Below, one piece after another: positions 12,272 through 36,369 of a stretch of DNA of 37,508 nucleotides. The DNA comes from an uncultured Gammaproteobacteria bacterium (GTDB lineage Bacteria; Patescibacteriota; Patescibacteriia; Patescibacteriales; UBA12075). Under the pieces are notes generated by a model, which saw only the letters and a program-made list of their open reading frames with translations, was not told the origin of the DNA and did no database searches. Within the stretch, counting starts at the first letter, position 1. Every line of letters starts with the position of its first letter. The position numbers and the translations under genes were made by a program. Location: positions 1-37,508 of the forward strand of contig CAYVIA010000004.1 of NCBI GenBank assembly GCA_964451485.1. The letters run 5' to 3'.

Positions 12272-12856
12272 CTATCTGCCTAACTTCTTCAGCGCCTCCC
12301 TGACTCTCTCTCCGCTGTCTTTAACGCCCGTACCGACCCGGCTTAAGGCCTCCCTGGCCTGGCCGAGGGAATAGCCAAGGGCCATAAGCGCGTCTATCTC
12401 GTCACCGCCGGCAACCACGTTCCCGCTTTTTCCGTCGGCCGTGCCCGGCAACGATAAACGGGACATTTTATCCCGCAATTCGAGCACTACCCTTTCTGCC
12501 GTTTTTTTGCCAATGCCGGAAACCTTGACCAGCAGGGACGAATCGCCGCCGGCAATCGATGCGCGCAGGTCGTCCACGTCTGCCATCGACAAAACGGCCA
12601 ACGCCGACTTCGGCCCGATGCCGCTGACCGAGAGCATCAGCTCGAACATCTCCAGCTGCTCCGCCGACCTGAACCCGTAAAGCACGCTTGCATCCTCGCG
12701 CACGTGATGATAAATATAAATTTCCGTCGGTTGTCCCGCGTCGAGTTCCGCGTATTGGGATGCGCTAACGATCACTTTGTAGCCGACATCATTCACCCTG
12801 ACGACGACATAGCCCGTGCCCTTATATAAAACTTTACCCGATAAAAAAGCAATCAT
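12272..12856 (-). CDS. ruvA: Holliday junction branch migration complex subunit RuvA
   Basis: 194 aa. N-terminal OB-like MIAFLSGKV..., two HhH motifs (VSGIGPKSALAVL, VSGIGKKTAERVVLEL), C-terminal domain III. Confidence 0.9.
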   Translation of the reverse strand: MIAFLSGKVLYKGTGYVVVRVNDVGYKVIVSASQYAELDAGQPTEIYIYHHVREDASVLYGFRSAEQLEMFELMLSVSGIGPKSALAVLSMADVDDLRASIAGGDSSLLVKVSGIGKKTAERVVLELRDKMSRLSLPGTADGKSGNVVAGGDEIDALMALGYSLGQAREALSRVGTGVKDSGERVREALKKLGR

Positions 12857-12859
12857 AGA

Positions 12860-13696
12860 TTATTTCCCCAGCGTTTTCTTTATCTTCTCCACGATCTCTT
12901 CGGTGGTAAAATGCGCCTTAACCAGATAATCGTTGGCCTTCATGTCCATGGCTTTTTTGATGTCATCTTCCTGCCCCAGATTGGAAAGCATGATGACCGG
13001 AATTTCCATAATCTCCTTATTCTTATGGGTGCGGATCTGGTGAAGAATCTGGAAACCGTCGATAGCCGGCAAAATGATATCTAAAAGCACGATATCCGGT
13101 TTAATTTCCTCTATACTGTTCATGGCCTGCTCCCCGTCAATCGCTTCATAGACGGACATGCCTTCTTTAGTCAATTTTTTACTGCAAATCTCCCGCAGAA
13201 AAGCGTCATCCTCGACCAAAAGAACCTTTATGCCCAAACTCTTGACGCTTCCGTCTTCTTTCGGCTTGATGGCAGCCGTGTGGGCGGGATTTTTCGGGGG
13301 TACGCCGCCGTTACCGAGACAATCTTTGACCTTGCCCAAAACATCAAGGGGGCTGAATTCGGTTTTTATCAGATGGTCAACGGCTCCCAATTTTTTGGTT
13401 TTTTCGATCTCGACCGGCTGCCCGGAGTTGGAGATAATAATCACCGGCGTTTTATTGCCGTCTTCGTTCAGTTTCTCGAGAACCTCATAACCGTCCATCT
13501 TGGGCATAACGATATCCAGCAAGATCAAATCCGGCTTCCATGAATTTATCATCTTATAACCCTCTTCGCCGTCTCCGGCGGCGGCCACTTCGTAATTTTC
13601 TTTTCGGAGTTTGGCCACCAATAACTCCATCAGGGACTGCTCGTCCTCGATAATCAATATCTTTTGTCCCTTGGACGCATTATTTTCGCTACTCAT
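12860..13696 (-). CDS. tandem-receiver (REC-REC) response regulator without an output domain
   Basis: Two CheY-like domains. REC1: ILIIEDE...PDLILLDIVMPKMDG...DHLIK. REC2: VLLVEDD...PDIVLLDIILPAIDG...DYLVK. Both keep the acidic pocket, phospho-Asp and Lys. No HTH or enzymatic domain is present. Confidence 0.9.
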   Translation of the reverse strand: MSSENNASKGQKILIIEDEQSLMELLVAKLRKENYEVAAAGDGEEGYKMINSWKPDLILLDIVMPKMDGYEVLEKLNEDGNKTPVIIISNSGQPVEIEKTKKLGAVDHLIKTEFSPLDVLGKVKDCLGNGGVPPKNPAHTAAIKPKEDGSVKSLGIKVLLVEDDAFLREICSKKLTKEGMSVYEAIDGEQAMNSIEEIKPDIVLLDIILPAIDGFQILHQIRTHKNKEIMEIPVIMLSNLGQEDDIKKAMDMKANDYLVKAHFTTEEIVEKIKKTLGK

Positions 13697-13736
13697 ATGA
13701 TTTTTCTTAGATTATAATTTTTAAAAATATATAAAA

Positions 13737-15437
13737 TTATACTTCCTTTTTCACCGGCAATGTAATCGTCATCTCCGTTCCCTTGCCCTCCTCGCTCCGG
13801 CAGGAGATAGTGCCATGATGTTCATCGACGATATTTTTAGCGATAAACAGTCCCAACCCCGAACCCTCCGTTTGCATGCGTACGACGTTGTCGGCCCGGA
13901 AGAATTTCGTGAAAAGCTTATCTCTGGCCTTCGCGGGAATGCCCACGCCGTTATCTTTGATCTTTATCTCCAGAGATTTCTTCCCGCCCCTGACGTCGAT
14001 TCTGATCGTACCCGATTCCGGAGTGTACTTGACCGCGTTCTCCAGTAAATGCCTGATGGCGATATCCATCTTCTCGGCATCCATATAAATATCGGGCAGC
14101 TCCGATTCGAGATTAACGATCAGGCGGATCTTCTTGCTTTTCGCCTGATCGGAAAAATCTTTGAGAATCGGGCCCAAAACCGCATCAGGCTCCTCTTTTC
14201 TGAATTCGTAACCGAATTTTCCTTCTTCGATCCGGGAAACATACAGCATCTCGTTGATCAGGTTGATTACCCTCTCATTGCTGAAATATCCGTTCCATAA
14301 AATTTTCTTCTGTTCCTCGTTCAATTCGCCCGCGTCTCCGTCCAGCACCATCTTTACCGACCATTTTATGGCCGACAGCGGCGTTCTTAGCTGATGGGCG
14401 GCGATGGAAATGAATTCCGATTTAAGCATATCAATCATTTTTTCTCTCGTCAAATCATAAAATATTTTCATGTAGCCGTAGCAAACGCCCTTTTCATCGC
14501 GCACGGGCGCCGTCATCACTTTATAAACCGTCTCCCCCCGATTATATTTCGTAATACCTATTCTGAAAGGATTTCTCGTTTCTTCTTTCGCGGATGAAGA
14601 CGGAATCTTGCCGGCCTTAATGACTACCTCTTCTATGGTAAGCCCGGGATTATCGCCCGCTTCGACTTCCTGTACGCTAAAATCGACTTTTTTTATTATT
14701 TCGCTAAAACCCTCGAAGGAAAAACGATCTCCGGCCAAATCGACCCGCCGTCCCAAATCCTTGTCCGACAAACGAAACACTCTTCTCGCCTCCGGATTCA
14801 ACAACATAATGCGCCCGCCGTTGTCCACGACGATTACCGGATCGAGAAAGTTTGAAATTATGGCCGCTGTCTTATTCTTTTCCTTTTCGATCTTTTCCTT
14901 GCCCGATTTCACGTCCTCAAGCACCTTAATCAAAACTTTCTGCGCTTTTTCCAGCTCCTCGGTTCTCTCCCTGACCTTATCTTTCAGGCCATTCTGTAGC
15001 TTTTTCAAATCGGTAATGTCGGAAAGGGCCAAAAAATATCCAACCACTTCCCTTTTTATGTCCCGCCTTAAGGTGGCGGATACGGATACGTAAATAATAT
15101 CGCCCCGCTTGGTCATGAATTCCATCTCTTTCTGCCGGACTTCCCCTTTGGCGTGCAACGCGCGAATTAAATTATTGATCTTTTTTTTATCCCTGAAAAA
15201 AAATTCTACTTTCCGGCCGACCGCATCCATTTCGTCATATCCGCTCAATTTTCTAAAAGCGTTATTGGCGTCCACGATAATATTAACCGGCGTTACCATG
15301 CAGACAGGCATGGGCAAAAAGACGGAAAATTCTCTGATATAACTTTCGAGCTCCCGTACGTCTTCGATGTCTTCAATGTCGGGTAATTCGCCGTTTTTCG
15401 TTACATTTTTTTTCATGATGTTTTGAATGCGGGTCAT
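13737..15437 (-). CDS. cytoplasmic PAS-domain sensor histidine kinase (HisKA + HATPase_c)
   Basis: 566 aa with no hydrophobic N-terminus. H-box SEFISIAAHQLRTPLSAIKW, N-box ENAVKYTPE, G-boxes DNGVGIP and EGSGLGLFI. PAS-like segments lie upstream. Confidence 0.9.
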   Translation of the reverse strand: MTRIQNIMKKNVTKNGELPDIEDIEDVRELESYIREFSVFLPMPVCMVTPVNIIVDANNAFRKLSGYDEMDAVGRKVEFFFRDKKKINNLIRALHAKGEVRQKEMEFMTKRGDIIYVSVSATLRRDIKREVVGYFLALSDITDLKKLQNGLKDKVRERTEELEKAQKVLIKVLEDVKSGKEKIEKEKNKTAAIISNFLDPVIVVDNGGRIMLLNPEARRVFRLSDKDLGRRVDLAGDRFSFEGFSEIIKKVDFSVQEVEAGDNPGLTIEEVVIKAGKIPSSSAKEETRNPFRIGITKYNRGETVYKVMTAPVRDEKGVCYGYMKIFYDLTREKMIDMLKSEFISIAAHQLRTPLSAIKWSVKMVLDGDAGELNEEQKKILWNGYFSNERVINLINEMLYVSRIEEGKFGYEFRKEEPDAVLGPILKDFSDQAKSKKIRLIVNLESELPDIYMDAEKMDIAIRHLLENAVKYTPESGTIRIDVRGGKKSLEIKIKDNGVGIPAKARDKLFTKFFRADNVVRMQTEGSGLGLFIAKNIVDEHHGTISCRSEEGKGTEMTITLPVKKEV

Positions 15438-15468
15438 CTATACATCCTGAAAAGATTATGACCCCTTA

Positions 15469-16092
15469 CTACTCCCAGCTTATAGTATATTCATGATAAG
15501 GGTCGCCCCGAAACATGCATTTTGCTTCCTGTGCGGAGGTTTTATCGCTGCCTGTGGCCAGTTCCACGATTTTAGAGAAAACCCCCCGATGATAGATACA
15601 GGTAATGGGATGCTTCTTAAAATCAATGACACGGAAAGTTACTTTCTTCCCCTTTTCGTCCACTTCGACAATCTCCAGTCGGCCGCCCTGTTGATAGTAA
15701 CGGCTTTGCCACTTTTCAGCCGCCTTTTTGAAAGTTCGTGCGGGCGAAGAAAAGTATTTCAAAAAAAATTTCATAGGAGCGTTAAGGGACAGCGCTTCTC
15801 TGCCCATTTGAATAATATCTTCTTCTCCCCAGCCGAAAACCTTAGTCATGGCCAACATATAAATCGTGGGTAACGCGATTGATGCCCATTCCAGGTCCCT
15901 TAATTTATTGATGTCCGGCAAATCAACACCAGCTTTTGCCAGCTCATTCTTAACGGCTCTCACCCCCTCGTTGCCTTTCTTGATCCTGGCGTAATTGCGC
16001 AGGAATTTTATATCCGAACCGCGCTCTTTGCCTTCAAGCGAACGCAGATTCTCCCACTCTTTTTTTAGATTGATATTCGTAAGATCGTACAT
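15469..16092 (-). CDS. V4R-like (4-vinyl-reductase / H-NOX-superfamily-type) small ligand-binding protein, paralog 1
   Basis: 207 aa. C-terminal HPITCIYHRGVFSKI...EAKCMFRGDPYHEYTISW fits the V4R C-terminal pattern (C-x-F/Y-x-x-G ... E-x-x-C-x-x-G-x-x-C-x-F) with the last Cys replaced by Tyr. Roughly one third of residues are identical to the adjacent 203-aa ORF, by eye. Confidence 0.55.
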   Translation of the reverse strand: MYDLTNINLKKEWENLRSLEGKERGSDIKFLRNYARIKKGNEGVRAVKNELAKAGVDLPDINKLRDLEWASIALPTIYMLAMTKVFGWGEEDIIQMGREALSLNAPMKFFLKYFSSPARTFKKAAEKWQSRYYQQGGRLEIVEVDEKGKKVTFRVIDFKKHPITCIYHRGVFSKIVELATGSDKTSAQEAKCMFRGDPYHEYTISWE

Positions 16093-16133
16093 ACCATTGA
16101 TATTAAAATAAACTTATAAAATAAAAAAATCTT

Positions 16134-16745
16134 TTATTTCCAGATAATCGAAAATTCATGGCAATCGGCGCCGGCAAACATGCATTTCGTTTCGCGCACT
16201 TCGATCTTTTCGCTCTTGATCACCATGCGGGCAAACTGGGAAAAATACCCCCGCAAGAAAACGCACATCGCCGGATGGGCTTTATAATCTTTCAGGCGAA
16301 TAATAATATGCTTGTCTCTAGAATTGAAATCGAAGGCCTCGAGCGTTCCTGTGGTATGATGTTTTCTCCAGTTTGCGGGGGAGGCGAGAAAGGTCTTCTC
16401 GACGGAAACGAAATATTTCATCAACAACTTGACGAGAAAAGAAATCTTTGGCGCGTTCTCGCCCATGGCGAAGATATCGGTTTCGCCCCAGCCGAAAACT
16501 TCCTGCGCGGCCAGAATAATTACTATACCGCAGGCCTCCGGATACCATGACAGGGACTGTAATTTCCCCAATTCTATCCGGCACCCCGCCTCTTTAAGCT
16601 TTTTCCCGACGGCGCGCACTCCGGCCTCTCCCTTTTGATGCCTGATATACGCCATTCTGCTGATAATAGCTTCTCCCCTGACTTTACCTCCGGTATTCTG
16701 CAATAAATCCGCATATATTTTTCTTAAATCTTTCGCTTTGGCCAT
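16134..16745 (-). CDS. V4R-like small ligand-binding protein, paralog 2 (full Cys/Glu/Cys/Cys set)
   Basis: 203 aa. HPAMCVFLRGYFSQF...RETKCMFAGADCHEFSIIW matches the V4R C-terminal signature. C161, E185, C188 and C195 have the same spacing as C165, E189, C192 and Y199 in paralog 1. Confidence 0.6.
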   Translation of the reverse strand: MAKAKDLRKIYADLLQNTGGKVRGEAIISRMAYIRHQKGEAGVRAVGKKLKEAGCRIELGKLQSLSWYPEACGIVIILAAQEVFGWGETDIFAMGENAPKISFLVKLLMKYFVSVEKTFLASPANWRKHHTTGTLEAFDFNSRDKHIIIRLKDYKAHPAMCVFLRGYFSQFARMVIKSEKIEVRETKCMFAGADCHEFSIIWK

Positions 16746-16757
16746 AAAATTGCTTAC

Positions 16758-18668
16758 TTACTTATTAAGCGGCAGAGTGAATACGAATTCCGTTCCTCTG
16801 CCCTCTTTGCTCGTAAAAGTTATATCGCCGCCGTGCCTGTTCACGATATTCTTGACGATAAAAAGCCCCAATCCCGACCCCTCTGTCTGCATGCGCATCA
16901 CGTTTGCCGCCCGGAAGAATTTCGAAAATATCTTCTCCTGGTCTTTCTGGGGAATGCCCACGCCATTGTCCGTAACTTTAACCTGCAGAAACGCCCTGCC
17001 CACCTCCACGCCGACCTTGATCGTACCGTACTCCGGAGTATACTTCACGGCGTTCTCCAGTATATTCTGGAGCACGAGAGCCATTTTTTGCTTATCCATG
17101 TAAACTTTCGGTAATTTTTTCGGCTTATCCAGGACGAATTTTATCTTCTTTTCCTTTATCCTGTTTTCCAAACTGTCCAAAACGATATCCAGCACTTCCC
17201 GGAAGTCGCTCTGGCCGAAAGTATAACCGAAACGCCCCTCCTCTATACGGGACACGTTAAGCATATCGTTAACCAGCTCTATGATCCTTTCGTTGCTGAC
17301 ATACCCCCGGTAAAGCAGCTTCTTCTGCTCTTCGTTCAAAGGCCCGCAGTCCCCGTCAAGGACCATCTTGGTTACCCATTTGATAGCCGACAGGGGGGTT
17401 CTTAGCTGATGGGCGGCAATGGAGATAAATTCCGATTTCATCCTGTCCAGCATCTTTTCCCTGGTCAGATTATAAAATATCTTCATCGTTCCCAGGTGCT
17501 GCCCGTTCCTGTCCACCACCTTGGCGGTAATCACCTTATAAGTCAATTCCTGCTCCCCATAAGTTATTATCAACTCTTCTTCGCCCGGGTTTTCCGATTT
17601 CAGTTCCCGGCCTGTTTTCAGCTTATAGTCCTTCTTAACGATAGCCCTGAAATTATCCATGGAAAAATTATTCTCTGACAATATTTTCTTCCCTAAATCG
17701 GAATCGATCAGGCCGAAAACATCTTTGGCTGCCGGGTTGATAAGGGCCAGACACCCCTCCTTGTCCAGCACTATGATCGGGTCGAGAAAATTAGAAATAA
17801 TAGCAGCCGTTTTATTGCTCTCCTCCTCCGCCTTTTTTCGCGCCGCCTTAAGGTCGGTAAAGGCGGCAATCATGGCTTTCTCCGATTTTTCCAACTCATC
17901 GATCTTCTTGTCCAATTCCTTATTGATAGCCGTCAAAGCCAGATCCCGCTTGACCAGAAGTTTCGTGGTCTTGTCCAGCTGTTTCAGTTCATTCTCCCTG
18001 TATTCCTTGATGCGCACCAAGCTTTCCGTCTGCGTCATCAGTGTTATCTCCCTCTGATACAGGAATTTTATGCCATAGCCGGCGAAGAGGGCGATGATAA
18101 GATAAAAATTAGAGGTGGTCAGGGTCTGGACCAGGGAGATGGATAAATATTTAAATTCCGACAATTCAAAGGCGGAAAAAGAACTTTGGGCAAAAATCGT
18201 AACCGCTAAAAAATGAACGTAATTCAGCACGACCACCAAATTGACGAGCGCCGCCGATATGATTCCCGTAATAACCGCCCCCCTGACCTCGAAAATTATA
18301 GCCGCGGAAATAATCGGCAGAAAATAAAAAATACCGACTATATCGCGGTCGCCGCCGAAATTCATCAGAGCGGTAAAAATCGCCAATTCGATACCGATCT
18401 GCAGCATACTGAAAAATCTCAATTTTTTCTCCGATCCGTCTTTTTTGATCCTGGACAATGCATGATAAAAATAAGCGTTAATATAGATAAAAATCAATAA
18501 CAGCAAACCAACCGAAAAAAAAGAGAATTTTACCTCAAATAAGCTTGCCAGAGAGTTACCGATAATGCCGATCAAAAAAATAGCCACCATGTAGAACCAG
18601 CGGGCATTAATAAGCCATTCATTGATTTGCAGATTCCGATCGTATTGTGAATTGGCTTGTGCATTCAT
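16758..18668 (-). CDS. membrane-bound (about 6 TM) PAS sensor histidine kinase, paralog of the 13737-15437 kinase
   Basis: 636 aa. Hydrophobic N-terminal third, coiled-coil linker, then long runs shared with the other kinase: NKTAAIISNFLDP, MKIFYNLTREKM, KSEFISIAAHQLRTPLSAIKW, ENAVKYTPE, DNGVGIP, RMQTEGSGLGLFI. Confidence 0.9.
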   Translation of the reverse strand: MNAQANSQYDRNLQINEWLINARWFYMVAIFLIGIIGNSLASLFEVKFSFFSVGLLLLIFIYINAYFYHALSRIKKDGSEKKLRFFSMLQIGIELAIFTALMNFGGDRDIVGIFYFLPIISAAIIFEVRGAVITGIISAALVNLVVVLNYVHFLAVTIFAQSSFSAFELSEFKYLSISLVQTLTTSNFYLIIALFAGYGIKFLYQREITLMTQTESLVRIKEYRENELKQLDKTTKLLVKRDLALTAINKELDKKIDELEKSEKAMIAAFTDLKAARKKAEEESNKTAAIISNFLDPIIVLDKEGCLALINPAAKDVFGLIDSDLGKKILSENNFSMDNFRAIVKKDYKLKTGRELKSENPGEEELIITYGEQELTYKVITAKVVDRNGQHLGTMKIFYNLTREKMLDRMKSEFISIAAHQLRTPLSAIKWVTKMVLDGDCGPLNEEQKKLLYRGYVSNERIIELVNDMLNVSRIEEGRFGYTFGQSDFREVLDIVLDSLENRIKEKKIKFVLDKPKKLPKVYMDKQKMALVLQNILENAVKYTPEYGTIKVGVEVGRAFLQVKVTDNGVGIPQKDQEKIFSKFFRAANVMRMQTEGSGLGLFIVKNIVNRHGGDITFTSKEGRGTEFVFTLPLNK

Positions 18669-18791
18669 GTTATTATTATACTAAATTTTGGGAAAAAAAG
18701 AAAATTTTTCGGCTACGACAAAAAAACGCCGGCGGCAAAAATAAAAACGAGATAGTAACTTACGTCTATCCCGTCATTATTTTTACTTATA

Positions 18792-20246
18792 TTAGCTATT
18801 TAAAGCCAGATTCGCAAGCCATTCAGTTATCAACCGCACGCCAGCGCCGCTTCCTCCATAAGGATTATATCCCCAGGGCTGATCCGCGAAAGCCGGACCC
18901 GCAATATCGAGATGAACCCACTTATCCCGGTACTTGCGGGCGATAAATTCGCTCAAAAACAGGGCGGCGGTAATAGCCCCGCCATATCTGGCCGAAGAAA
19001 CATTGCTGATATCCGCTACTTCGCTTTTAAGCAGTTTCGGAAGATATTTATTGAACGGTAATTCCGCGGCCAGTTCTCCGCTCGCCTCCGCCGCGGCCCC
19101 GATCGCGCTCTTAAGTTCCTTGCCGTGGCCCATAACGCCTATCGTATACCGGCCCAAAGCCACCATACAGGCGCCGGTCAGCGTGGCCAGATCGGCGATA
19201 TAGTCGGGTTTCAGTTCCTGGGCATAGACAAGGCAGTCGGCCAGGACCAGCCGGCCCTCCGCGTCCGTATTTTTCACTTCGATGGTCTTGCCATTCTTGG
19301 CGCGGAGGACATCATCCGGCTTATAGCCGTGCTTGCCCACAACGTTCTCGGTGGCGCCGATAATGCCGTGCACTTCGAGCGGCAGTTTAAGGCGGCTCAC
19401 CGCCCGCATGATACCGATAATAGCGCTGGCGCCGCTCTTATCGCACTTCATAGTTACCATAGCCTCGCTCGGCTTCAGGCTCAGGCCTCCGCTGTCGAAA
19501 GTCAGGCCCTTGCCCACCAAAGCGATTTTCATTTTCGGCTTTTCCGGTCTGTGAATAAGATGGATAAGCTGAGGCGGATAAGGACTGGCCTTGCTCACGG
19601 CCAGGAACGCGCCCATGCCTTCTTTCTCCAGGTATTTTTCGCCGTACACTTTTATTTCCAGTCCGTCTTTCCGGGCGACCTCCCCGGCAATCTCTCCCAG
19701 CTTGACCGGCGTAACTTCGGCCGGGATGCGATTGACGATATCCCGCGTCAGGTTGGTGGCTTCGGCCAGAATCCTGCCCGTTCTTATTCCTTCCATAACC
19801 GCGCCCGCTTCGATCTTTTTATTTTCATATTCTTCCGCGGCGATCATCACCTTCGCCACCGGGCATTTTTCCTTTTTCGATTTATATTCGTTAAAACTAT
19901 AACCACCCAGCAAAAATCCTTCAGCTATAGCTCTGGCGCCCGCCTCCTCTTTCTGGTCCGTGTAAAGTCCGAGTTTTAAAATCTTTACCTTTGTTTTAGA
20001 AAGAGCGCGCAAAGCAAAAGCGCAAGCCGATCTTATATCATCCGGCGCCAACGAACCTATGCCGACATAAACCTTTTTTCTGTGCGGCAGAAACAAAACC
20101 TCTTCCGCTTCTCCCTTGAAATTCTGCGCCTCTAGCTCTTTTTTGTCTTTAACCCATTTATGTTTCATGTTCTTGCTGACGACAAAGATAACTTCACAGT
20201 CAGCCTTGATTTGGGTTGATTTTTTGTTGACGAATTGGATAGTCAT
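18792..20246 (-). CDS. pepA: leucyl aminopeptidase (M17 family)
   Basis: 484 aa. M17 signature NTDAEGRLVLAD, and VGKGLTFDSGGLSLKP. Confidence 0.9.
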   Translation of the reverse strand: MTIQFVNKKSTQIKADCEVIFVVSKNMKHKWVKDKKELEAQNFKGEAEEVLFLPHRKKVYVGIGSLAPDDIRSACAFALRALSKTKVKILKLGLYTDQKEEAGARAIAEGFLLGGYSFNEYKSKKEKCPVAKVMIAAEEYENKKIEAGAVMEGIRTGRILAEATNLTRDIVNRIPAEVTPVKLGEIAGEVARKDGLEIKVYGEKYLEKEGMGAFLAVSKASPYPPQLIHLIHRPEKPKMKIALVGKGLTFDSGGLSLKPSEAMVTMKCDKSGASAIIGIMRAVSRLKLPLEVHGIIGATENVVGKHGYKPDDVLRAKNGKTIEVKNTDAEGRLVLADCLVYAQELKPDYIADLATLTGACMVALGRYTIGVMGHGKELKSAIGAAAEASGELAAELPFNKYLPKLLKSEVADISNVSSARYGGAITAALFLSEFIARKYRDKWVHLDIAGPAFADQPWGYNPYGGSGAGVRLITEWLANLALNS

Positions 20247-33753: not shown

Positions 33754-34161
33754 TCAACCCCTCCTCTTTTTCACTCCCGCGCCCTGGCCGTCAAGGACCT
33801 TGCGGACGCTGTCCACGAGCTGGCTGGGGGTGATATTGGCTTTGATCAGATAGCCGTCGGCGCCCCCCTCGAGCCCCTGGTCAATCTCTTCCTTCTGGCC
33901 CAGATTAGACAAGATATAAACCTTGATGTTTTTCGTCTCCTTGTCGGCTTTCAGGGCATCCAAAACCTGATAGCCGTTCATGCCCGGCAAAACGATATCG
34001 AGAAGAATCAGGTCCGGTTTTTCTTTTTTCGCCATCATAAGGCCATCCTCGCCGTCCATGGCCACGATAAGATTAAGCCCCTCATTCTCGAATTTCATCT
34101 GGTAAAGCTCCACCAGGATCTGCTCATCCTCGATCAAAAGAATTTTTTTTGCATCTGCCAT
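33754..34161 (-). CDS. stand-alone receiver (CheY-like) response regulator
   Basis: 135 aa. ILLIEDE, PDLILLDIVLPGMNG, DGYLIK. No output domain. Confidence 0.9.
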   Translation of the reverse strand: MADAKKILLIEDEQILVELYQMKFENEGLNLIVAMDGEDGLMMAKKEKPDLILLDIVLPGMNGYQVLDALKADKETKNIKVYILSNLGQKEEIDQGLEGGADGYLIKANITPSQLVDSVRKVLDGQGAGVKKRRG

Positions 34162-34200
34162 ATAATTAAAATAATTTTTTAGTCAGAGAAATCAAATTTT

Positions 34201-36369
34201 TTAATTCTTTAAAATCGGCAGTTTAAAACAGAACTTCGCTCCCCTGCCCGCGCCCTTGCTCTCGGCCCAAATCTTGCCGCTGTGGGCGTCTATTACTTTC
34301 TTAGCCACGAAGAGTCCCAGCCCCGTGCCTTCGGTATGAACGAGCGAGGTGCCGGCGCCGCGGGAAAATTTCTTGAAAAGATTAGGCAGGTCTTCCGGCC
34401 TGATGCCCATACCGGAGTCGGACACGCAAAATTCGATCTCGTCACCCGCTCTTTTCAAACTGACGGCAATCCTGCCCTTAGTCGTATATTTAATGGCGTT
34501 ATCGATCAGGTTCATCACCACTTGCCTCAATTTCTCCTCATCGGCCCCGACCGGCGGCAGCGCTTCCGCGGGCAATTCGGCGTCGATAGAGAGTCCCTTG
34601 CCGGTTGCCGTCCCCGACAGCTCATCCATCACGTCACGCACGAGTTCGTCCAGGCGCATTTCCTCGAAGTCATACTGCAATTTGCCCGATTCGATGCGGG
34701 AAATATTGAGAAGATTTTCGACCAGGCGGATCAGGCGCTCGTTCGACAGAAAAACCTTTTCCAACGCGTCCCTTTTCTTGTCGGTCAGGCGGCCGAAATT
34801 GCCCTCGATCATCATGGAAATATAACCCTTGATAATCGACAAAGGCGTCCTTAACTGGTGCGAAGCGATGGAAATGAACTCACTCTTGGCCGCGTCCAGT
34901 TCTTTGAGTTTGACATTGGCGGCCTTAAGTTCGGCCGTGGCCCGCTTCACTTCTTTTTCGAGCGTAACGTTAAAATCCTTCGTTTCCTTATAAAGCAAAG
35001 CGTTTTCGAGGGCGATGGCCGTCTGCGCGCCGACGATCTCGAGCACCTGCACGTCTTCATGGTTATACATATCCCCGGATTCTTTGGGACCGAGCGCCAA
35101 AAGTCCGATAGTTTTATCTTTGACCAACAAGGGGACGAGCACGTGAATGTCGTATTTTTTGAGCAGAGCGATCGTGCGCCCGTATCGCTCGCCGAATTTT
35201 TCTTTCGATTCGTCCGTGATGATCACGCGGTTGTGCTTAATGACCTCGGTATAAAATCCCGGCTCTTCGGTAAAACTATAGCGCTCTTTGCGCTCATGTC
35301 CCGTATCGAAAGCGGCTTCATATTCTCTCGTTTTTTCGTTCCAGATCAGCACGGTCATGGTCTTGATATGCAGGACGTTAACGAGCGTGCCGGACACGAA
35401 GGCATAGATCATTTTAACCTCCAGCGTAGCCTTGAGTTTTTCCGACAGATCCGCGATCACCTCCCGCGCGTCGTAGAGGGAAGAGAAAAAATATTTGTTG
35501 GCGATGCGGTAGTAGTAATCCTTAACCGAGGAAAAAATGGAAATCGACAGCACCAGCACAACAAAATCGATCAAGATAGATTGCCGACCGAATGATAAAG
35601 ATAATAAATATTTCAAAAAGATAGCCGGAATTAAAATCGTGATCAAAGAGGCGAGATAGACGGAATATCTGCGCAAGACGAACCTAATGTCCATTAAGTG
35701 CAAACGAACAATGGCATAACTGGTCAGCAAAACCATAACCAAAGAAGAAATTTGTCCGGCCCAATTCAAACTGAAATTTCCCAGGGTCGGCAATGTCAGG
35801 TTCGTTAGCATGCCCGCGATAGACCCAAGGAGAATGCCGGAAAATATATAAATTATCTGCTGTCTGACAATACCCGACGATCTTCTCAGTTTTCTGAATA
35901 AAATATAATATAACCACAAAAAATAACCGGAAATAAAAAGGGTATATATCGAATAGTATAATGAACCGAAAATTATCTTCTTTTCTTGCCCGGGCGCGAA
36001 TTCCACGCTCTTTATTATCATGTCAGTAAAAAGAACCAAACCTGATAGCGAGATTCCGCTTCCGAAAACGATCACATAAATATATTTTTTGATTTTATCC
36101 GATGACTCGGGAAACAAATAAGCGAAACATATCAGGAAAGACACGATAAAAATAGGCGAGACATAAAGTGTCTTGCACCAAAATATCGAATCGCCTACGG
36201 TTGCCGCGGATCTGTACAGCATCATGGAAATACTCCAGGTGACGACACTTAACGCGAATAAACTAAAAATCTGATTTATGATTTTCCTTTTCCCCTTAAA
36301 CAAAACAAGAATGCCCATCATTAAGTTTATACCGGCTGAAATCGCGATTGATGTATTTATTAAATCCAT
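34201..36369 (-). CDS. multi-pass membrane (about 8-9 TM) GAF-domain sensor histidine kinase
   Basis: 722 aa. Hydrophobic N-terminal 290 aa or so, GAF-like segment ending LVPLLVKDKTIGLLALG...EIVGAQTAIALENA, H-box SEFISIASHQLRTPLSIIKG, N/G boxes NLIDNAIKYT, DSGMGI, GTGLGLFV. Confidence 0.9.
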   Translation of the reverse strand: MDLINTSIAISAGINLMMGILVLFKGKRKIINQIFSLFALSVVTWSISMMLYRSAATVGDSIFWCKTLYVSPIFIVSFLICFAYLFPESSDKIKKYIYVIVFGSGISLSGLVLFTDMIIKSVEFAPGQEKKIIFGSLYYSIYTLFISGYFLWLYYILFRKLRRSSGIVRQQIIYIFSGILLGSIAGMLTNLTLPTLGNFSLNWAGQISSLVMVLLTSYAIVRLHLMDIRFVLRRYSVYLASLITILIPAIFLKYLLSLSFGRQSILIDFVVLVLSISIFSSVKDYYYRIANKYFFSSLYDAREVIADLSEKLKATLEVKMIYAFVSGTLVNVLHIKTMTVLIWNEKTREYEAAFDTGHERKERYSFTEEPGFYTEVIKHNRVIITDESKEKFGERYGRTIALLKKYDIHVLVPLLVKDKTIGLLALGPKESGDMYNHEDVQVLEIVGAQTAIALENALLYKETKDFNVTLEKEVKRATAELKAANVKLKELDAAKSEFISIASHQLRTPLSIIKGYISMMIEGNFGRLTDKKRDALEKVFLSNERLIRLVENLLNISRIESGKLQYDFEEMRLDELVRDVMDELSGTATGKGLSIDAELPAEALPPVGADEEKLRQVVMNLIDNAIKYTTKGRIAVSLKRAGDEIEFCVSDSGMGIRPEDLPNLFKKFSRGAGTSLVHTEGTGLGLFVAKKVIDAHSGKIWAESKGAGRGAKFCFKLPILKN

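Follow-up and report, generated by a model that had tools for sequence, protein, structure and literature searches.

The question raised by the locus described here is what two small stand-alone proteins do when their genes lie between those of two histidine kinases. The locus occupies positions 12,860 to 18,668 of contig CAYVIA010000004.1 (GenBank assembly GCA_964451485.1), of which positions 1 to 37,508 were analysed; this whole stretch of 37,508 nucleotides (nt) is referred to below as the window. A preliminary description of the window had recognised a five-gene signalling cluster, all of it co-directional on the minus strand, and the list of open reading frames (ORFs) agrees with this and with the limits of the genes, which are as follows (aa, amino acids).

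16758-18668, minus strand: HK1, a membrane histidine kinase of 636 aa.
16134-16745, minus strand: sA, a stand-alone small protein of 203 aa.
15469-16092, minus strand: sB, a stand-alone small protein of 207 aa.
13737-15437, minus strand: HK2, a soluble kinase of 566 aa.
12860-13696, minus strand: REC-REC, a protein of 278 aa with two receivers.

The spacers between these genes, taken in the order listed, are 12, 41, 31 and 40 nt. The answer that we propose, by analogy with the H-NOX/HnoK systems, is that sA and sB would be trans-acting sensory subunits that regulate the kinase. We hold this to be moderately probable, and it is the explanation that we prefer. Taken as a whole, the locus probably represents an accessory-sensor two-component system of a new kind, and one typical of Patescibacteria.

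AlphaFold2 gives confident models for both small proteins, with a predicted local distance difference test score (pLDDT) of 91.5 and a predicted template modelling score (pTM) of 0.88 for sA, and 91.7 and 0.89 respectively for sB. For both models, the top approximately 40 Foldseek matches in the PDB are H-NOX domains (from Nostoc, Shewanella, Caldanaerobacter and Kordia) or the beta subunit of soluble guanylate cyclase (sGC). The H-NOX matches have E-values of 1e-6 to 1e-4, cover about 192 columns of about 205 residues, and have root-mean-square deviations of 3.5-4.6 Å, with template modelling (TM) scores of 0.64-0.69 on the query and 0.71-0.77 on the target (0.64-0.75 for sA and 0.68/0.76 for sB). 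The next matches are TRAPPC3/Bet3, MJ1460, PoxR, MopR and DmpR, which cover the C-terminal half only (about 135-170 columns, TM 0.36-0.55); the V4R-type structures 2osd/2oso, 5kbe, 5fru and 6iy8 are found at E-values of 1e-3 to 3e-3, with TM scores of 0.40-0.55. Given that the H-NOX matches span about 192 columns and the V4R and TRAPPC3 matches only the C-terminal half, the small proteins as modelled carry the complete H-NOX architecture, and their C-terminal half is the V4R-like part of it.

At the level of sequence, sA and sB are paralogs, as previously stated, with 37% identity and an E-value of 2e-44. The preliminary description had also assigned them a V4R-type signature, and of this claim one part stands: they do belong to the V4R/H-NOX fold superfamily, but their scores against the Pfam V4R family (PF02830) stay below the gathering score of 31 bits, being 24.8 bits (E 2.4e-5) for sA and 12.5 bits (E 0.16) for sB. 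The V4R family is matched by 29 of 59 diverse relatives at E<0.01, the best of them at 5.4e-7, and it is the sole Pfam family with matches among them. The other families proposed for the same check gave nothing: HNOB (PF07700) has no match at E<=1 for sA or sB and none in the 59 relatives, and DUF2378 (PF09536), which we take to belong to the H-NOX-like clan, matches neither sA nor sB nor any of the 59 relatives. No NCBIfam family matches sA or sB. A search of PDB sequences with the family profile returned a sole match, to a designed-repeat protein, which was rejected as spurious.

The family to which they belong is large, unnamed and uncharacterised. A word-indexed search found just 11 close clusters; a profile search, exhaustive over 1.84 billion cluster representatives (clusters at 50% identity), found 844 clusters at E<=1e-3 (291 of them reaching E<=1e-30), which puts the family at 844 clusters at least. 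Its members carry source names such as 'hypothetical protein' or 'predicted hydrocarbon binding protein', the latter from the Joint Genome Institute (JGI). Proteins of the best 150 of the 844 clusters are 136-228 aa long, barring two tandem double-domain proteins. These two, P0012 (410 aa) and P0013 (405 aa), are natural tandem fusions with two complete small-protein domains per chain. Since the members stand alone (in the best 150 of the 844 clusters, the two tandem doubles aside), the family has to signal via protein contacts. Clustering places sA with the single-copy orthologs of other Patescibacteria and limits the sB-type paralog to the clade of the window; on this sequence evidence sA is the apparent ancestral type and sB a diverged paralog. 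The same clustering indicates that the small gene has been duplicated repeatedly and independently, there being 1-3 copies per locus.

The sequences of the family carry a conserved motif of metal-binding type, C-x23-E-x2-C-x7-H. In the 59 diverse relatives its residues are kept at frequencies of 83-95% (C161 in 56/59, E185 in 55/59, C188 in 56/59 and H196 in 49/59, in sA numbering). Also conserved are W126 (58/59), G133 (59/59) and the pair H157-P158. The two sites in the window are located as follows.

16158-16265, minus strand: metal-site segment of sA, with C161 (at the start of helix G), E185, C188 and H196.
15493-15600, minus strand: metal-site segment of sB, with C165, E189, C192 and H200, none of which varies among the 30 sequences of alignment A4.

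In the sA model, helix G begins with one of the predicted ligands, and the others lie where strand 3 ends and strand 4 begins. This is the arrangement of the metal-binding cluster of the Pfam V4R family, namely a Cys on a helix, a Cys-x7-Cys/His on strands 3/4, and an acidic residue or His three residues earlier. The site of MopR, which we take to be C155/E178/C181/H189, has the same pattern as the motif of the small proteins. The modelled positions of the ligands would also fit the role described for V4R sites, in which the sheet is tethered to the helix and so forms a cavity (PMC10933270). Among other proteins of the superfamily, the pattern recurs in DmpR, whose zinc site of C151/E172/C177/C185 is flanked by a conserved Trp (PMC7264223), in the redox-sensitive triad of Cys of MsvR (MaMsvR), C206/C232/C240 (PMC3729527), and in the zinc site of Shewanella H-NOX, made up of C139/H161/C164/C172 (PMC7108781). 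A zinc-type site is thus not exclusive to V4R domains, the same pattern being present in the H-NOX proteins of Shewanella, Vibrio and Caulobacter, where it serves the redox control of HnoK (PMC7108781, PMC12329717).

The residues with which H-NOX domains bind heme are a different matter. The comparison was made by hhalign with Tt H-NOX, for which the query sequence is 100% identical to 1u4h, and it rests on a weak alignment whose only register pairs sA 162-187 with Tt 139-162. In it the proximal His of Tt H-NOX (H102) falls on N125/W126 of sA, and there is no invariant His on that helix. For the YxSxR motif, Y131 aligns with Y154 of sA, but S133 and R135 are replaced by A156 and P158 in this weak alignment. 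With no counterpart to the proximal His, nor to Ser and Arg of YxSxR, both heme and the sensing of nitric oxide are unlikely. Together with the lack of a match to HNOB or DUF2378, these absences bear out the earlier view that the small proteins form a branch distinct from the heme-binding H-NOX proteins.

What the small proteins work with is suggested by the genes beside them. Neighbourhoods were collected at 41 loci (numbered with the prefix L), using exact-protein look-ups, a pattern scan of GTDB species genomes, and domain scans with profiles built from the window; the pattern scan used alignment A1 and has a bias toward Patescibacteria. At 26 distinct loci there is enough downstream sequence to judge. 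The unit that recurs is co-directional and consists of 1-3 small genes, then a soluble kinase of about 520-550 aa with the architecture of HK2, then a REC1-type and a REC2-type receiver, with spacers or overlaps of 0-40 nt. In 23 of the 26 loci, including ones from Chloroflexota and WOR-3, the small gene or genes stand directly before a PAS-first protein, so that the adjacency to kinases noted in the window is kept elsewhere; the exceptions are L016, L023 and L034. The N-terminal PAS of the partner resembles PAS1 of HK2 across the loci. Because an identical gene order recurs in many unrelated metagenomic contigs, the order of the cluster is far beyond chance.

Two contigs are of particular value here, since their flanks are entirely different. 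In the Chloroflexota contig L032, the small gene is followed by a PAS-HisKA gene and then by a HATPase gene. In the WOR-3 contig (L025:7959-10428), it is followed by a gene for a PAS-PAS-GAF-HD_5 protein, of HD-GYP type, whose first PAS matches PAS1 of HK2 at 2e-16. As the pairing is kept in both, the constant partner is a particular N-terminal PAS module, whatever the output attached to it. H-NOX proteins likewise pair with kinases or with enzymes of cyclic di-GMP (c-di-GMP) metabolism.

The two kinases of the window can be compared in this light. They are paralogs, as had been described, with 52% identity over 411 aa (E 2e-134), the similarity of HK1 to HK2 running from aa 254 onward, and each has an intact set of H, N, G1, F and G2 boxes. 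The Pfam domains are PAS, HisKA and HATPase_c in HK1, and PAS, PAS, HisKA and HATPase_c in HK2. Their parts are the following.

HK1, minus strand: about 6 transmembrane segments (aa 1-205), a coiled coil, PAS (aa ~283-407), HisKA (His420) and HATPase_c.
HK2, minus strand: PAS1 (aa ~31-150), an S-helix with an ERT motif (aa 157-159), PAS2, HisKA (His348) and HATPase_c.

The difference at the N-terminus seen earlier, with HK1 in the membrane and HK2 soluble, is also confirmed: the first 200 or so aa of HK1 contain about 6 hydrophobic segments, 4 of them strong and about 2 weaker, and in HK2 there is no credible membrane span, the sole window flagged by a crude scan (aa 37-55) falling within the N-terminal PAS. 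The ERT-type S-helix of HK2 (the S-helix is defined in PMC1592074) comes straight after PAS1, with ERT at aa 157. HK1-type genes are limited to the closest relatives (L001-3, L007 and L010), and the feature that never varies among the partners, an N-terminal PAS1, is missing from HK1. As judged from the sequences, HK2 is the conserved partner of the small proteins; HK1 may be a clade-specific second input, borne in the membrane and built on a duplicated HK2 core, which would probably feed the same receivers. A short contig labelled as Gammaproteobacteria (L009) has an HK1-type kinase core followed by an sA/sB-type pair of the window's clade.

The receivers tell against a simpler picture of the locus. 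REC-REC consists of two stretches of Pfam Response_reg (E 4.8e-52), and both receivers are intact, in keeping with the preliminary description, with E17/D18/D61/S89/K111 in the first and D163/D164/D206/S238/K260 in the second; the phospho-acceptor positions of this REC1-REC2 fusion are D61 and D206. That description went on to give each kinase a receiver of its own and to see two sensor/kinase sets converging on a dual receiver, neither of which is sustained by the other genomes. Most have one soluble kinase and both receivers, as two proteins of about 122 aa that are orthologs of REC1 and REC2; fusion of the two is confined to the window and L001/L002, the receivers being separate elsewhere. 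Since single-kinase genomes still carry a REC1-type and a REC2-type receiver, the receiver pair does not track the number of kinases, and the REC-REC fusion, HK1 and the sB-type paralog are found only in the clade of the window.

What remains of this idea is that HK1 works with sA and HK2 with sB, as two independent pairs of which each phosphorylates its own receiver of REC-REC. The layout of the window invites it: the gene for sA follows that for HK1 by 12 nt, the gene for sB precedes that for HK2 by 31 nt, and kinases, small proteins and intact receivers all number two; at two loci (L037 and L038) small genes interleave with genes for S-helix proteins, described below, in a way compatible with one-to-one pairing. 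We consider it distinctly unlikely, given that single-kinase genomes keep both types of receiver, that the ortholog of the single small protein before HK2-type kinases is sA and not sB, that HK1 is without the PAS1 invariant among partners, and that the tandem fusions P0012 and P0013 point to a heterodimer of the paralogs.

Beyond the receivers, no output domain is encoded in the cluster, as had been noted, nor in any locus examined. The genes past the receivers are housekeeping genes, Fpg and HolA in most loci and RuvA in the window; that genes of DNA maintenance consistently come after the receivers is an observation in its own right. It could be supposed that the small proteins are themselves the missing outputs, controlled by the phosphorylated receivers, and there is a precedent in MetOD1 (Galperin et al. 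2018), an output domain of methanogen response regulators which is described as having an H-NOX-like secondary structure and the V4R cluster of Cys, and is fused to REC (PMC5847659). The small proteins would then be a split version of REC-MetOD1, a proposal to which the lack of any other output lends some appeal. Compared by its description, MetOD1 differs in being C-terminal to REC and restricted to methanogens, whereas the small proteins are stand-alone or tandem, bacterial, and encoded upstream of a kinase. A role as output is in our view very unlikely: the small genes lie upstream of the kinase and not beside the receivers, the small genes of WOR-3 and Chloroflexota pair with a PAS protein with no receiver nearby, one locus (L031) keeps the receivers without a small gene, and there are 1-3 copies of the small gene against a constant two receivers.

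The mechanism that we prefer is one of regulation of the kinase. In it, sA and sB would dock on the N-terminal PAS1/S-helix part of the kinase, and the docked proteins would gate autophosphorylation in response to a signal. The signal is most likely either the oxidation or redox state of the Zn-thiolate site, with a possible C161-C188 disulfide, or a hydrophobic ligand held in the interior, of the kind seen in MopR, DmpR and TRAPPC3. Phosphate would then pass to both receivers, which would act by protein-protein contacts. From the repeated duplication of the small gene and the existence of the tandem fusions P0012 and P0013 it would seem that the paralogs function in heterodimeric form; proteins of the V4R and TRAPPC3 kinds are dimeric (PMC10933270).

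The nearest known system is H-NOX/HnoK of Shewanella oneidensis, Vibrio cholerae and Caulobacter. There too the sensor is a stand-alone protein, of about 190 aa and with the same fold (Foldseek TM 0.64-0.77), its gene adjoins that of a histidine kinase or c-di-GMP enzyme, as the small genes adjoin their partners in 23/26 loci, and the zinc site has the common pattern C...X-x2-C-x7-C/H. The autophosphorylation of HnoK is inhibited by H-NOX; for Caulobacter H-NOX, and for Vibrio H-NOX free of heme, oxidising the Zn-Cys site is by itself the activating signal that brings about this inhibition (PMC7108781, PMC12329717). The differences are that H-NOX has no detectable sequence homology to the small proteins, that its zinc site has three Cys where theirs has two Cys with Glu and His, and that the HnoK system has the receivers HnoB, HnoC and HnoD, whereas here there are two CheY-like proteins and a kinase with an N-terminal PAS-S-helix part.

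A second parallel is the regulatory lobe of sGC, which has the same order of modules: H-NOX fold, PAS, ERT-type S-helix and catalytic part. In sGC the H-NOX domain packs against the PAS and the S-helix coiled coil and moves both on activation, and one of its paralogous H-NOX domains, the alpha, is without heme (PMC6839917). However, sGC has its modules in a single chain with a cyclase as output; here the H-NOX-like module is a separate polypeptide with no heme-binding residues, and the output is a histidine kinase.

The V4R domains of MopR, DmpR, PoxR, MJ1460, MsvR and TRAPPC3/Bet3 form a third group, in which the C-terminal alpha/beta half superposes on the small proteins (Foldseek E ~1e-3, TM 0.40-0.55). 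The Cys/Glu/Cys/His(Cys) site that tethers sheet to helix is common to both, as is a conserved Trp near the site (W126 of sA, W128 of DmpR). These domains sense hydrophobic ligands or thiol redox (PMC7264223, PMC3729527, PMC10933270), and PAS(PYP)-V4R fusion proteins exist (PMC12826048). The small proteins differ from them in their N-terminal helical half, which follows H-NOX, and in their sub-threshold Pfam V4R scores; moreover V4R domains occur joined to AAA+ or HTH outputs or as trafficking subunits, whereas the small proteins are stand-alone and linked to a kinase. A similar logic with an unrelated fold is seen in NosP (FIST)/NahK, where a separate cytoplasmic sensor controls the neighbouring kinase. 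The control of a kinase by a separate small sensor is thus an established principle, and it is the family carrying it here that is uncharacterised. As anticipated, our searches of the literature found no characterised partnership of a V4R protein and a kinase, no description of a V4R-like or heme-less H-NOX-like kinase partner, and none of the Patescibacteria module.

Several observations weigh against the proposal that the small proteins are trans-acting sensors of the kinase. The likeness of fold to H-NOX is without sequence backing, since the family profile compared with Tt H-NOX by hhalign gives a probability of only 0.5, which is not significant. The site has just two Cys, so that a redox switch would be limited to one disulfide. 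Most of the supporting loci are from Patescibacteria, where synteny around the site is strong (T2SSE, TsaE and 5'-3' exonuclease, then Fpg, HolA and MurE), and this makes adjacency within the phylum weaker evidence than the count suggests; just two clear contigs from outside the candidate phyla radiation (CPR) keep the pairing. In L031 only the last 28 codons of the small gene are left (L031:8001-8084), immediately before or overlapping the start of the kinase; with an intact kinase and two intact receivers still present, it looks as if the small gene was lost in this lineage. Finally, distant members of the family (~26-29% identity) adjoin SpoIIAA-like genes (L036) or no signalling gene (L034).

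A further locus, L027, is labelled as Ca. Humimicrobiaceae (Atribacterota) and was tried as independent non-CPR evidence; it has the full flanking synteny of Patescibacteria and was not counted. The taxonomic labels of L027 and L009 probably reflect mis-binning. In L036 (3080-8721), close to a His_Phos_1 gene, distant members of the family (~29% identity) and SpoIIAA-like (PF11964) genes come in turn, three of each, a different context that is possibly one of partner-switching.

The synteny and the distant members bear on another explanation, which is that the small proteins have no part in signalling. They might be carriers of a ligand, or enzymes of the V4R/ATC-hydrolase type, and be found beside a kinase simply as a result of Patescibacteria synteny; the distant members without a kinase neighbour would agree with this, as would the JGI name for some members, 'predicted hydrocarbon binding protein'. 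We regard this as extremely unlikely. The pairing survives while the genes upstream vary freely, it is found in non-CPR contigs with different flanks, in one case with a different output domain, and the genes are co-directional, with spacers or overlaps of 0-40 nt.

The genes upstream, which vary so freely, have a feature of their own. Those just 5' of the small genes in the relatives encode sCache-HAMP and dCache-HAMP proteins, short HAMP proteins with two transmembrane segments (2TM), flavodoxin-like proteins with six such segments (6TM), 6TM proteins, a membrane anchor of 157 aa, and PAS-only proteins. All of them share a conserved C-terminal coiled-coil tail of about 90 aa, and there is an output domain in none. 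The tail is made up of two (A/E)RT S-helix motifs followed by ELERFxRLxVGRELKMIELKKEIKKLK, and its first half is homologous to the S-helix of the kinase itself. A profile search with the tail finds 1258 proteins or more at E<=1e-6, none of the best 120 being longer than 161 aa. A reciprocal look-up of a tail-only protein of 85 aa returns to the module, the order of genes being tail, small protein (2e-69 to the family), PAS kinase, REC, REC, Fpg and HolA. Example tail loci are given here.

L014:7535-8008, L005:5731-7020, L011:5264-6262, L013:6412-7707, L017:6644-7297 and L039:6001-6258: genes for proteins with the S-helix tail.

Such tails could mean that the small proteins are coupling proteins rather than sensors, that is, adaptors that link membrane receptors without outputs to the soluble kinase, as an analogue of MCP-CheW-CheA, with HK1 taking the place of the receptor in the window. 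The shared tail, its homology to the kinase S-helix, the reciprocal look-up and the interleaving of small and tail genes in L037 and L038 all speak for an adaptor, and the H-NOX domain of sGC does touch the S-helix coiled coil (PMC6839917). Even so, an adaptor role, though the main rival to our proposal, appears unlikely. The core module is present without an adjoining tail gene in L020, L021, L025 and L032, and there is no tail ORF anywhere in the 37.5-kb window, where the coiled coil of HK1 is only weakly like the tail (E 0.033). The fold, the conserved metal site and the residues of the pocket are typical of sensors and not of scaffolds, and among the best 150 of the 844 clusters there is no fusion of a receptor with a small protein or of a small protein with a kinase. 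The resemblance to MCP-CheW-CheA is one of logic only: no CheW, CheA or MCP signalling domains were found, and Pfam shows only Cache, HAMP, PAS, HisKA, HATPase and REC. HK1 was also considered as a tailed receptor fused to a duplicated HK2 core, but this was dropped as evidence and is left as a speculation, since the tail hidden Markov model (HMM) has no match in it and the hhalign similarity (E 0.033) extends over 16 residues.

Taken more broadly, the same features would describe a split machine of Patescibacteria, with varied output-less tailed sensors, 1-3 small H-NOX/V4R-like couplers, one PAS-S-helix kinase and two CheY-like receivers, in which the receptor became HK1 in the window's clade; we offer this as a tentative and rather unlikely possibility. 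The tailed receptors also pose a question of their own, namely by what means a coiled-coil tail passes on a signal when no output domain is covalently joined to it.

The tailed receptors are often preceded by solute-binding proteins or by membrane-anchored FIST proteins. Proteins with FIST_N and FIST_C (the NosP fold) adjoin sCache-HAMP-tail receptors at L011:3772-5160, L026:11300-12655 and L026:13711-14889, and 2/3 of these (L011:3772-5160 and L026:11300-12655) have an N-terminal membrane anchor, unlike NosP. There are also proteins of about 440 aa in which an N-terminal flavodoxin-like part is followed by six transmembrane segments and the S-helix tail (L012:958-2292, L013:6412-7707 and L019:6620-7975), an architecture that we did not recognise.

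If the small proteins do act as trans-acting sensors, then a large heme-less family with the H-NOX fold would be partners of histidine kinases, and the H-NOX/HnoK principle would extend to a zinc-site, V4R-like branch. The common metal site also provides a concrete evolutionary link between V4R and H-NOX. The reduced genomes of Patescibacteria encode few signalling systems; for this reason, and from its conserved genomic position, the module probably ranks among the main sensory pathways that these episymbiotic bacteria have. Possible inputs are the redox state, exposure to oxygen, or a lipophilic molecule derived from the host, and the receiver-only output is a tractable route into how Patescibacteria regulate their behaviour. 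For the specialist, the interest lies in the link of fold and metal site between V4R and H-NOX, in the precedent for redox sensing, and in the output-less tailed receptors.

It remains to describe the surroundings of the cluster. The five genes probably form one transcription unit of a Patescibacteria genome, and the closest relatives carry Patescibacteria annotation. The flanking features are these.

18669-18804, minus strand: intergenic region with a promoter-like site, directly past the stop codon of pepA and upstream of HK1.
12272-12856, minus strand: ruvA, 3 nt (12857-12859) past the stop codon of REC-REC.

A pattern scan gave a promoter-like match at 18804..18776, and a TATAAT-like tataataataac is found immediately 5' of the ATG of HK1, each being a consensus match only; from the sequence, 18669-18804 is the probable start of the transcription unit. 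Terminator-like matches between 12000 and 19000 number 11, against 8.3 ± 3.3 in shuffles, which is no excess, and those within the cluster are inside coding sequence. The gene ruvA is probably co-transcribed with the signalling genes, yet it lies outside the signalling module. No regulatory RNA was found in the window by Rfam and tRNA scans. The other genes of the window include rpoB/C, a MurE-like ligase, FemAB, RuvA, PepA, HtpX, LemA, a T2SSE ATPase, IleRS and UvrB/C, and such flanking genes mark the region as an ordinary chromosomal one.

It is worth adding that the window contains a second two-component pair, at 33754-36369 on the minus strand, which is also without an output domain and consists of a kinase followed by a single-domain receiver.

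34201-36369, minus strand: a HisKA_7TM-GAF-HisKA-HATPase kinase of 722 aa.
33754-34161, minus strand: a single-domain receiver of 135 aa, after the 722-aa kinase.

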